The notes beneath the pieces were generated by a model that was not told the DNA's origin, did not search any database, and worked only from the letters and a program-made list of their open reading frames with translations. From Myxococcota bacterium (lineage in GTDB: Bacteria; Myxococcota_A; Polyangia; Polyangiales; Sandaracinaceae): 12,608 bases of DNA. The stretch covers positions 1-12,608 of the forward strand of contig JAYZQJ010000221.1 in the NCBI GenBank assembly GCA_036149055.1, given 5' to 3'. Shown here in pieces: positions 3,131 to 12,408 of this stretch; positions within the stretch are counted from its first letter, which is position 1; each line of letters begins with the position of its first letter. The position numbers were made by a program, and so were the translations under genes.

Positions 3131-3621
3131 GTCACCCCAACGTCAAGAACGTCGCCGCGCTCGAGCCCACCGCCATCGAGAAGGGCCCGCATCGCATCGT
3201 GCGCCGCCAGCTCGGTCGGCCGGCCGGGAGCCAGCAGCTCGGCTGCAGCCACATCACGATCCCGCCGGGCGGGCGGAGCTGGCCGCGGCACTGGCACGCG
3301 GTCAACGAGGAGGCGATCTACGTGCTCTCGGGCGAAGGCGTGGCGCTGATCGGCGACGAGAGGGTGCCGGTGAAGGCCGGAGACTACGTGGCGCTTCCGG
3401 TCGGCGAGGCGCACGCCCATCAGATGCGGAACGAGGGCGCCGAGGACCTCGTCTATCTCTGCTTCAGCACGATGATCCCGCACGAGATCGCGTTCTACGC
3501 CGACACCGGCAAGGTCGCGCTCTTCGCCGGCGCGGCGCCCGGGGGAGACAAGTCCGCGCGCTTCGTCGAGCGCTACGCCTACCTGGAGGACGTCGACTAC
3601 TGGGACGACGAGGGCGCTTGA
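3127..3621 (+). CDS. Cupin domain protein, 164 aa (MSHPNVKNV...)
   Basis: Metal-binding cupin motifs [17 protein letters not shown] and GDYVALP...AHQMRN. ATGA overlap with the methyltransferase stop suggests translational coupling. Confidence 0.9.
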
Positions 3622-3646
3622 CGCCGGGCGCGTCGCGCCTCAGGCT
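3618..3646 (+). promoter_or_regulatory. Putative sigma70-type promoter for the tuf leader
   Basis: TTGACG (3618-3623), 17-nt spacer, CAGGCT (3641-3646). Confidence 0.55.
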
Positions 3647-3655
3647 CAGCGAGTC

Positions 3656-3733
3656 ATGCGGCTCGACTCACGGACAGCGTCACGCACCGCGCCCGCTCTC
3701 GCAGCGGATCGGTGCACGTGCGTCCGGAGGTAG
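3656..3733 (+). CDS. Putative leader peptide (uORF) [25 protein letters not shown]
   Basis: ATG 9 nt after the -10 box, TAG at 3731-3733. Its last codons overlap the predicted antiterminator strand. Confidence 0.5.
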
Positions 3734-3766
3734 AGAGCCCAGACCGCGAGCGCTCGCTCGAGCTGA

Positions 3767-3808
3767 AAGGCCCCTCCGGCACACGCCGAGAGGGGCCTTC
3801 GCAATTCT
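3767..3808 (+). terminator. Attenuator/terminator-like hairpin in the tuf leader
   Basis: AAGGCCCCTCCGGC-ACAC-GCCG(A)GAGGGGCCTT: 14-bp stem with one bulge, followed by a weak tail (CGCAATTCT). Confidence 0.6.
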
Positions 3809-3902
3809 GCGCGTCTCTCCCGGCGTCCCCCGGCGGGGCCAGGTCTCCCTCCGTCGTCCGCGAAGGTCGCGGCGCGTGAGGAGAAACGGAGAACGTAGAG
3901 AG

Positions 3903-5075
3903 ATGAACATCGAGAAGCAGCACCTGAGCGTCGGCACGATCGGCCACGTGGACCACGGCAAGACGACGCTGACGGCGGCGTTGACGGCCGCCACGGCCCA
4001 CGCGTTCGGCGGGACGGCGCGCGGCTTCGGCGACATCGACAACGCGCCCGAGGAGCGGCGGCGGGGCATCACGATCCAGGCCTCGCACGTGCAGTACGAG
4101 TCTCGGGCTCGCGTGTACGCGCACGTCGACTGCCCCGGGCACGCCGACTTCGTCAAGAACATGATCGCGGGCGCGTCCCAGATGGACGGCGCGATCCTGC
4201 TCGTGGACGGATCCGTCGGGGTGCAGGCGCAGACGCGTGAGCACGTCCTGCTCGCGAGGCAGGTCGGCGTCGAGCACGTCGTGGTGTTCGTCAACAAGGT
4301 GGACATCGCCGACCCCGAGCTGCTCGACCTCGTCGAGATCGAGGTGGCCGAGCTGCTCGAGGCGCACGACTACATCGACCCGCCCTTCGTGCGGGGCTCG
4401 GCCCTCGAGGCGCTGCGCGCCTGTGAGGAGGGGCGCTGGGACGACGCGCGGGTGGAGGAGATCCTCGCCCTCGTCGAGGCCCTCGACGCCCACGTGCCCG
4501 TGCCCGAGCGGGACTACGACGCCCCCTTCTTCATGCCCGTCGAGGGCGTGTGCAGCATCGAGGGGCTCGGCACCGTGATCACCGGCAAGGTCGAGCGCGG
4601 CCGGCTCTCGGTCGGCGCCAGCGTCGAGGTCGTCGGTCGCGGCGGCGAGCCGCGGCAGGCGGTCGTGAAAGGCATCCAGTCGTTCCACCGTGACGTGCCC
4701 GAGGCGGTCGCGGGCTGGAACGTCGGGCTGCTGCTCCGGGGCGTCGGCCGTGAAGAGATCGTGCGCGGTCAGGTCGCGGTCTCGCCCGGCTCGATCGCCT
4801 CTCACGCCACCGGCGAGGCGGAGATCTTCCTCCTCTCCGAGAAGGAGGGCGGCCGCAAGCGGCCCTTCGGATCGGGCTACGCGCCGCAGCTCTTCTTCGG
4901 CGTGGTCGGCGTGACCGGCACCCTCCGGTTCGACGAGGGCGTCATCGCGCCGGGTGACCGGGCGAGCGTCCGCTTCGAGCTCGACAAGGCGGTGGCCATC
5001 GAGCCCGGCATGCGCTTCGCCATGCGCGAGGGCGGCCGCACCATCGGCGCCGGGGTCGTGCGCGCGGTGGCGTGA
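3903..5075 (+). CDS. tuf: Divergent, stand-alone elongation factor Tu paralog, 390 aa
   Basis: [32 protein letters not shown] and C-terminal [22 protein letters not shown] upstream of ATG 3903. Not flanked by fusA/rpsJ or tRNA/secE genes. Confidence 0.95.
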
Positions 5076-11871: not shown

Positions 11872-12408
11872 ATGGGTAGAAGATTTCGTGGGGCCGTCCG
11901 ACCGAACAAGCCCGAACACCGCGTCAATCACAGAATTCGCTTCCCTCAGATCCGAGTCGTCGATCCCGATGGATCCGTCCTCGGCGTCATGAGCCCCGAA
12001 GAAGGCCGCGCGAAGGCTCGAGAGTATGGTCTCGACCTCGTGGAGATGGCGCCCAACGCGCGCCCCCCGGTCTGCCGGATCATGGACTACGGGAAGTTCA
12101 AGTACGAGCAGAGCAAGGCCAAGTCGGCGAAGAAGAACGACGGCCCGCAGCTCAAGACCGTGCAGATGCGTCCCAAGACCGACACGCACGATCTCGAGAC
12201 CAAGCTCAACCGCGCCCGCCGCTTCCTGGAGCGCGGCGACAAGGTCAAGCTCGTGATGCGGCTCCGCGGACGAGAGCGCGGCTACCCGCAGCGCTGGGTG
12301 CAGATGATGCACGAGCACGTGCAGGAGCACCTGAGCGACGTCGCCGACGTGGCGTCGAGGCCGGCCCAGCAGGGCCGCATGATCTCGATGCTGCTCGAGC
12401 CGAGCTGA
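11872..12408 (+). CDS. infC: Translation initiation factor IF-3, stand-alone copy, 178 aa
   Basis: RVNHRIR...IRVVD, GLDLVEM, PPVCRIMDYGKFKYE, FLERGDKVK, RGRE motifs. AAGGAG SD 4 nt upstream of ATG 11872. Confidence 0.95.
   Translation: MGRRFRGAVRPNKPEHRVNHRIRFPQIRVVDPDGSVLGVMSPEEGRAKAREYGLDLVEMAPNARPPVCRIMDYGKFKYEQSKAKSAKKNDGPQLKTVQMRPKTDTHDLETKLNRARRFLERGDKVKLVMRLRGRERGYPQRWVQMMHEHVQEHLSDVADVASRPAQQGRMISMLLEPS

Follow-up and report, generated by a model that had tools for sequence, protein, structure and literature searches.

A divergent accessory EF-Tu of Myxococcota with altered inhibitor pockets and an attenuator-like leader

The DNA considered here, hereafter the window, comprises positions 1-12,608 of contig JAYZQJ010000221.1 (assembly GCA_036149055.1) from a Myxococcota bacterium of the family Sandaracinaceae, and its subject is a stand-alone gene for a divergent elongation factor Tu (EF-Tu) carried in addition to the canonical tuf. 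Judged by its residues, this paralog is a member of an accessory EF-Tu clade that Myxococcota have to themselves in the main, distinct from the Tu3 of Streptomyces; it retains its GTPase core and differs from canonical EF-Tu where pulvomycin-type and GE2270A-type inhibitors act. The gene follows a short upstream open reading frame (uORF) and a terminator-like hairpin that apparently form, as modelled by folding, a ribosome-stalling transcription attenuator. The account proposed here, a stalling-induced, stand-alone spare EF-Tu that would escape ternary-complex blockers, is given about an even chance of being right. A first-pass annotation made from the sequence had described a Tu3-like EF-Tu resistant to three antibiotic classes: the divergent accessory EF-Tu beside a canonical tuf and the changes at the GE2270A-type and pulvomycin-type pockets, which turned out to be clade-wide, have stood, whereas the Tu3-like, three-class version has not, and both the attenuator-like leader and the phage-like copies of the gene had been overlooked.

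The protein and its clade

Regarding its identity, the 390-residue paralog shares 55% of its residues with the E. coli EF-Tu taken from an annotated genome; in the NCBIfam search it passes three EF-Tu subfamily models and misses the equivalog TIGR00485 (481 vs 522 bits). Its AlphaFold2 model (pLDDT 87) has the three-domain fold and matches the GTP form 1EXM with a TM-score of 0.94 and a root-mean-square deviation of 2.0 Å. The G1-G5 motifs and H84 are intact, as had been annotated together with Q124, A375 and E378, and the tRNA contacts H66, K89, N90, E215, T228, N273, R288, R318, Q329, E378 and G379 are all retained; from sequence and model, the protein is probably functional in translation.

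The search for a canonical tuf, proposed with the first annotation, found two 3' ends at contig breaks, one before rpsJ (C50) and the other before rpmG/tRNA/secE (C47); a single 5' end follows fusA (C148), so that the paralog is an extra copy; both kinds of EF-Tu also occur together in complete or near-complete relatives (G428, G017). The paralog is under purifying selection, with a dN/dS of 0.155 against a same-genus genome and of 0.03-0.21 across four informative clade pairs; the pair L189/L151 is void, its lengths being different, and the pair L001/L197 rests on three changes. In the housekeeping EF-Tu of the order (L020-L037) the switch-I loop has been replaced and is two residues longer by insertion (D50A, R58K region), which sets it apart from both the E. 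coli protein and the paralog.

As for the substitutions, all eleven that had been named are present when the protein is aligned in mature E. coli numbering (Table 1). The residue counts below refer to proteins dereplicated at 90%, namely 128 of the clade, 76 canonical, 22 Tu3-like and 16 phage-like; the canonical background came from a genome-contig scan in which the 80 matches listed comprised 79 canonical EF-Tus and one clade member. The most fixed change is R333G, found in 128/128 clade and 16/16 phage-like proteins and in none of the 76 canonical or 22 Tu3-like ones; E259Q (121/128) and D109Q (104/128) are likewise absent from the canonical set, and R262H occurs in 116/128. M260 is altered in 125/128, F218 in 107/128 (C in 57), and D216 and T334 in 94/128 each, with G replacing D216 in 73. 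The clade-wide character of R333G, E259Q and R262H does not extend to all the named sites: R223L (15/128), R230K (14/128) and T256K (16/128) are confined to a small subclade, the original residues being kept in 111, 111 and 103 proteins. Conversely, H66, H84, E215, T228, N273, R288 and T382 are retained in 122-128 of the 128 proteins, E378 in all, Q124 in 127 and A375 in 125; the kirromycin-related L120, Q124, G316, Q329 and E378 are unchanged, and no clade change falls at the core kirromycin sites.

Several altered positions are drug contacts or resistance positions. R333 and T334 are, as we take it, pulvomycin-resistance positions. The R223-E259 salt bridge and the GE2270A contacts had been given correctly, in agreement with PMC8183687, which lists D216 and E259 among the contacts. 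Bottromycin touches domain II at two residues, D216 and R262, and the changes D216N/Y confer resistance to it, recessively when a sensitive allele is present (bioRxiv 2025.08.17.670399); kirromycin-resistance changes include Y160N and Q124R (bioRxiv 2024.02.10.575802).

Whether these changes exceed chance depends on the set of positions taken. The paralog deviates at 14 of the 102 positions strictly invariant among the canonical proteins, and four of these deviations are among the nine listed GE2270A contacts (p=0.019); over the positions conserved at 90% or more, where it deviates at 45/189, the contacts are not enriched (4/10, p=0.19). The clade as a whole changed seven of the 102 invariant positions (A96, D109, D216, E259, K263, R333 and T334), of which four are among 11 blocker-site positions (p=0.002, a post hoc test that counts R333 and T334 as pulvomycin positions).

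It had been stated that residues common in drug-sensitive EF-Tus would refute the first annotation. R333G and E259Q are absent from the 76 canonical proteins, but E259Q, R262H and Y160H also occur in one housekeeping lineage, a Patescibacteria-like, low-GC tuf before rpsJ-rplC-rplD bearing H160, Q259 and H262 (six loci on metagenome contigs: L204, L192, L194, L190, L164, L161). The three residues are therefore compatible with normal function, and this tuf is convergent with the clade at these sites. In the clade, the loop 104-112 has been rebuilt as well, as has the domain-3 tip (protein positions 104-112, 323 and 346-351, E. coli numbering), presumably contacts of EF-Ts, and the EF-Tu of the clade may be less dependent on that factor.

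The clade forms one side of a branch with support of 99-100 in four quick trees, and the nearest relatives that bear a name belong to Sandaracinaceae, Polyangiaceae, Nannocystales and Enhygromyxa; one member comes from a Pseudomonadota genome. Among 301 genomes of the order, 48 have a match at E<=1e-124, with at least 58% identity in 46; among 401 of the phylum, 22 have one at E<=3.5e-134. The present genome is part of either count, many of the genomes are incomplete, and genome G023 enters the order count only as a non-match. Two split EF-Tu matches (G037:C10:1066029-1067193 and G025:C27:552942-554001), one of them clade-like with 67-72% identity, are possibly frameshifted genes or assembly errors.

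The gene stands alone, outside the ribosomal operons and, within flanks of about 1.5 kb, outside biosynthetic clusters; with no such cluster beside it in these flanks, nothing points to the self-resistance gene of a producer. The neighbouring genes in the window encode a cupin, a methyltransferase and a kinase, and among 95 nearest-neighbour ORFs of relatives (from 104 picked, with two from the window and seven short ones left out) no family recurs beyond pairs.

The leader, its expression and the phage-like copies

Upstream of the gene lie a candidate promoter, a near-leaderless uORF, an antiterminator segment and a terminator-like hairpin (Table 1), an arrangement compared across 60 chromosomal-type loci, or 43 after dereplication and a length filter. 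A uORF starting with MR or VR is present in 31/43 loci, against a mean of 5.7 and a maximum of 12 in shuffles, and 28 of these 31 leaders have a hairpin of -16 kcal/mol or lower. A TTGAC/TTGCG-type -35 hexamer precedes the uORF in 23/31 leaders, in 22 of them 37-48 nt upstream of the start codon, a distance that makes the uORF almost leaderless. The leader fold has a z of -3.93, and the C-rich 5' arm of the hairpin is nearly invariant across 40 aligned loci; the uORF peptide is not conserved (six non-synonymous changes vs one synonymous against the same-genus genome) and has no amino-acid run.

Folding is consistent with a switch governed by the position of the ribosome. With constrained folding, ribosome footprints on codons 1-14 and 18-19 give up to 15 pairs with positions 3769-3784, and footprints on codons 15-17 and 20-26 give none. 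In nascent-RNA folding, 1.4 bases of the 11-base hairpin arm are paired upstream in ribosome-free RNA, 10.7 with an early stall and 0.5 with the ribosome at the stop codon, a behaviour matched by 0/30 shuffles. Over 29 hand-picked leaders, the simulated switch is above the shuffle mean in 29/29, exceeds three bases in 13/29, and is matched by no more than 5% of 30 shuffles in 15/29.

Regarding searches with general tools, a scan for consensus promoters and terminators called neither the promoter candidate nor the hairpin, and Rfam gave no credible match in the leader. Two scripted scans of the genome for the same leader returned only this locus, and a model of the hairpin returned this locus and weak hits; its next-best one (E 0.077; C33:92613-92660, L321) lies before ilvD behind a Val/Leu-rich frame, probably a branched-chain amino-acid attenuator in its classic setting. 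The genome also encodes a divergent EF-G paralog (C7:39962-41881, L003, L327; relatives L328-L338), for which a near-leaderless uORF follows TTGAC/TTGCG in 11/12 loci; two C-terminal peptide motifs recur among these uORFs, which from their sequences may encode an arrest peptide. Co-occurrence of the two paralogs, judged by eye, is loose.

As for expression, 43-59% of the words sampled occur in four metatranscriptome runs, all from a single study of seawater; runs X5-X10 contain small shares. Long RNA pieces cover the gene in 4/4 runs, and mismatch-free RNA contigs span 3667-3974, across the hairpin and into the gene, in 2/4; being assembled contigs, these data give presence only, without level, strand or ends, and one run covers 29/30 bins, so that DNA carry-over is possible. 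The host is a marine myxobacterium, and the runs in which its DNA is found do not fit the soil setting that had been assigned to it.

A part of the clade is phage-like. It consists of two subclades with 18 loci in all, or 16 after dereplication; most of these adjoin tRNA genes, and the uORF is present in only 3/17. Huge phages can encode EF-Tu, and one of these copies (locus L264) is on a 618,736-bp IMG/VR record (G637; CheckV 92%). A stretch of 40 kb there has 18 tRNA calls; the record shows no second match to GTP_EFTU and none to EF-Ts, and of 54 proteins one gave a baseplate-wedge hit. Searches of this record for terminase, sheath and Gp23 (T4-type capsid) found nothing, the Gp23 search having matched no control either; RtcB-like and RNA 2'-phosphotransferase proteins are also encoded there. 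A second virus record (L263) has a clade EF-Tu inside a tRNA array. Most tRNA-array loci are on unassigned metagenome contigs, and none of 50,697 GenBank phage records holds a clade member. R333G, E259Q, R262H and D109Q are present in 16/16 dereplicated phage-like proteins, and one subclade (L146, L152, L165, L167, L199, L203, L263) has a switch-I segment of the host-housekeeping type, which suggests exchange or recombination with a Polyangia-type host tuf.

Table 1. Features of the accessory EF-Tu locus (positions in the window)
Feature	Position	Strand	Basis
Promoter candidate: TTGACG 3618-3623, 17-nt spacer, weak -10 CAGGCT 3641-3646	3618..3646	+	Sequence inspection
Near-leaderless uORF, 25 codons, starts Met-Arg; RNA folds as one long hairpin	3656..3733	+	Leader comparison
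Antiterminator at the 3' end of the uORF; with a ribosome on early uORF codons, predicted to pair with the hairpin 5' arm	3718..3739	+	Constrained folding
Terminator-like GC hairpin 3767-3799 (-28 kcal/mol), weak U-containing tail 3798-3806	3767..3806	+	Folding
Purine-rich ribosome-binding region of the EF-Tu gene	3878..3892	+	GAGGAG at 3878, GGAGA at 3888
Divergent accessory EF-Tu, 390 aa	3903..5075	+	ORF list, NCBIfam models, AlphaFold2 model
Y160H, kirromycin cleft, polymorphic in the clade	CAC 4365-4367	+	Clade H 58, Y 33, Q 22 of 128; canonical Y 74/76; Tu3-like H 18/22
D216G, F218C, R223L, R230K, amino-acid pocket and neighbouring loops	4545..4589	+	Clade counts
T256K, E259Q, M260S, R262H, tRNA 3'-end / thiopeptide / bottromycin pocket	4668..4688	+	Clade counts
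R333G, T334V, three-domain junction, pulvomycin region	4899..4904	+	Clade counts

Two further genes of the window can be mentioned: a second IF-3 gene (11872-12408, + strand), which has 44% identity with the one that belongs to the infC-rpmI-rplT operon on C249, and a gene on the - strand (1125-2369) for a citrate-synthase-like protein with an N-terminal excisionase-type DNA-binding domain.

Proposed mechanism and competing explanations

In the mechanism proposed, a ribosome engaged in normal translation would clear the short uORF and the hairpin would terminate the transcript; when the delivery of aminoacyl-tRNA fails, the ribosome would lag on the early uORF codons, the 3' end of the uORF would pair with the 5' arm of the hairpin, and the EF-Tu gene would be transcribed. 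The product, with its GTPase and core tRNA contacts retained and with a rebuilt tRNA-end pocket (D216, F218, E259Q, M260, R262H) and domain junction (R333G, T334), would deliver tRNA while the host EF-Tu is blocked by a pulvomycin-like agent, a GE2270A-like one, or an unnamed agent of the same pockets. Kirromycin resistance is recessive beside a sensitive EF-Tu. Pulvomycin and GE2270A prevent aminoacyl-tRNA from being bound by EF-Tu, and kirromycin holds EF-Tu on the ribosome (PMC4307249); since blockers stop tRNA binding and trappers jam the ribosome, a spare resistant copy would rescue only the blocker case, which fits the fixation of changes at the blocker pockets and the looseness at Y160. 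Protection of the cell against all three classes, as first annotated, is unlikely: Y160 is kept in a part of the clade, the other kirromycin sites are intact, and resistance to trapping drugs is recessive beside sensitive copies.

Several points weigh against this account. G257 and G275, which we take to be the classic GE2270A-resistance positions, are intact in the paralog and in 115/128 and 127/128 clade proteins, and many fixed changes, such as V104L, A107G, D109Q and F304G, have no known drug link. For the clade, the published GE2270A list alone gives two of nine contacts at invariant positions (p=0.12), and the set conserved at 90% or more shows no enrichment (1/10, p=0.72; 2/10, p=0.57). 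As for the leader, a plain duplex test of the antiterminator is modest (8/31 at p<0.05), covariation in the hairpin is not established (three consensus pairs, in an alignment that is not structure-aware), the U tail is weak in the window and clearer in many relatives, and related leaders are not independent of each other; moreover, the phage-like copies keep the clade residues without the leader. A stalling sensor answers any translation stress and not EF-Tu drugs alone, and the resistance of the paralog is itself a prediction. Finally, the activity described for GE2270A is one on Gram-positive bacteria (PMC4307249), the host being Gram-negative, so that the real agent may be neither pulvomycin nor GE2270A.

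The version given in the first-pass annotation, an EF-Tu3 relative protecting against the kirromycin, pulvomycin and GE2270A of soil actinomycetes, is very unlikely, even with all the named residues present. The comparison was made with 22 divergent second EF-Tus of actinomycetes (L039, L040, L300-L319), which are presumed orthologues of tuf3. The paralog is 53% identical to these Tu3-like proteins and 53% to canonical ones. The two groups have in common Y160H and the derived states Y129H, a one-residue gap near position 140 that is missing from the deepest Tu3-like rows, G161, F162Y and two more gaps, vs 29 states found only in the clade and 55 found only in Tu3. The Tu3-like proteins use other residues: they keep R223, E259, R333 and T334 in 22/22, with G275A, R262G and a changed R230 (A/V/S) in 22/22 and D216N in 21/22, and none of the Tu3 signature (G275A, R230A/V/S, R262G, D216N, C81M, G172V, R373G) is found in the paralog, which has G275, K230, H262, G216, C81, G172 and R373. 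One quick tree, with two Tu3 rows, joined the groups with a support of 93, whereas three others kept them apart, two of these nesting Tu3 among the EF-Tus of Actinomycetota; with p=0.12, an approximately unbiased (AU) test left a sister relation unrejected. A leader of uORF and hairpin is present at Tu3-like loci too: about 90-320 nt upstream of the gene, a near-leaderless, Ala-rich uORF runs right up to a GC hairpin (15/22 by script and four more by eye). The hairpin model of the clade did not match these leaders (best E 0.3). Against the remainder of that version stand the polymorphism at Y160, the recessive resistance to trapping drugs, reported for bottromycin (bioRxiv 2025.08.17.670399), and the seawater origin of the RNA runs. 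The EF-Tu encoded on a Streptomyces plasmid record (NZ_CP109451.1:63295-64479, L041) shares 89% of its residues with that of E. coli, by transfer or contamination.

Among the other explanations, the one with a substantial, if minority, chance is a starvation or general-stress EF-Tu with altered preference for aminoacyl-tRNAs: the attenuator would sense a shortage of charged tRNA, the opened and less acidic pocket (D216G, F218C, R262H) would even out binding or shift it towards weak substrates, Asp- and Glu-tRNA for example, and any drug resistance would be a by-product. This explanation draws on the role of E215/D216 in disfavouring acidic amino acids, D216G being one of the six changes of EF-Sep (PMC11122139), on the coincidence of the thiopeptide site with the tRNA-end site (PMC4307249), on the response of whiB7/wblC leaders to amino-acid starvation as well (PMC11550727), on a title cited in PMC4342817 that places tuf3 under positive stringent control, and on the uORF of the EF-G paralog; it accounts poorly for E215, kept in 128/128 while D216 is kept in 34/128, for R333G, the most fixed change and distant from the amino-acid pocket, and for a uORF peptide that is neither conserved nor endowed with an amino-acid run. 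Rather improbable is a conflict between phages and hosts, in which the protein would escape a defence system or a phage inhibitor that inactivates or sequesters host EF-Tu, large phages carrying it with tRNAs and hosts keeping an inducible copy. The tRNA-adjoining subclades, the large virus record, the four signature residues in every phage-like protein and the host-type switch I are in its favour, and they are offset by the lack of terminase, sheath and T4-type capsid hits on that record, the mostly unassigned contigs, the absence of GenBank phage members, and the fact that no EF-Tu inhibitor of such a kind is identified; T382 and G59-I60, which we take to be the targets of Doc and Lit, are moreover kept. 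Relaxed drift of a dispensable paralog, with a chance overlap with drug sites, would suit the 45% divergence from E. coli EF-Tu, the patchy presence and the looser tests without enrichment, but it is the least credible in view of the low dN/dS in the four informative pairs, the new residues fixed over a phylum-wide clade and the conserved leader. A broader proposal, unlikely as a whole but less so than the phage-host conflict, combines the spare-copy account with the phage-like copies: a second, independent lineage of stress EF-Tu common to bacteria and giant phages would have one rebuilt EF-Tu (R333G, E259Q, R262H, D109Q) escaping an unnamed ternary-complex inhibitor; myxobacteria would keep the stalling switch, and huge phages would have captured the gene on two occasions, each time with tRNA arrays and no switch, so as to translate when the host EF-Tu is shut off.

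Significance and relation to known systems

A survey of translational GTPases recognized only one EF-Tu subfamily clearly distinct from the housekeeping one, the actinomycete actEF-Tu (PMC4342817), and the literature search, with subscription papers mostly outside it, found neither a divergent EF-Tu of myxobacteria nor a uORF of tuf3 described in any paper; bioRxiv 2026.09.14.751636 and PMC7824862 do not mention EF-Tu. The clade would thus add a second distinct subfamily, with other residues at the same pockets and with a switch in cis that predicts when the protein is made, and it provides natural variants for the question, open for Tu3 too, of why bacteria keep a divergent EF-Tu. It also separates two drug classes, in that only blockers of tRNA binding can select for a spare copy, and the phage-like copies, together with the uORF leaders before tuf3-like and EF-G paralog genes, hint at a wider set of stalling-induced translation factors.

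With the housekeeping EF-Tu (tufA/tufB) the paralog has in common the fold, the G motifs, H84 and the main tRNA contacts; it differs in lying outside the str and tRNA-tufB operons, in scoring below the equivalog cut-off, in not being homogenised with the housekeeping copy, and in lacking the altered switch I of the housekeeping protein of its own lineage. The engineered EF-Sep resembles it in the amino-acid pocket, where it too has D216G and an altered F218 (PMC11122139), whereas the paralog is natural and retains H66, E215, T228 and N273. As for the leader, its layout of uORF, antiterminator and hairpin is that of the whiB7/wblC attenuator, and of the vmlR and lmo0919 leaders; in whiB7/wblC, read-through of an intrinsic-type hairpin occurs when antibiotics or starvation disturb the translation of the uORF (PMC11550727). 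The differences are that here, in a predator that is Gram-negative, the leader immediately precedes the gene for an elongation factor, has no Rfam match, and has a switch known from simulation.

The closest parallel is EF-Tu3 (actEF-Tu, tuf3), which is also a non-essential, divergent and stand-alone EF-Tu beside a housekeeping tuf, with an intact GTPase core and with D216, R262, M260 and often Y160 changed. The tuf3 gene is induced by antibiotics via WblC (PMC7157823), and its overexpression gives at least fourfold GE2270A resistance beside a sensitive tuf1 (PMC12309360). The two differ in phylum and in signature, E259Q/R262H/R333G/D109Q in the clade vs G275A/R230A/R262G/D216N in Tu3, and the clade has phage-like copies. 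From its residues, the paralog is expected to work like Tu3 and is not classed as Tu3; it is apparently an undescribed variant of the Tu3 kind of system, with its own residues, an attenuator-like leader and phage-like carriers.

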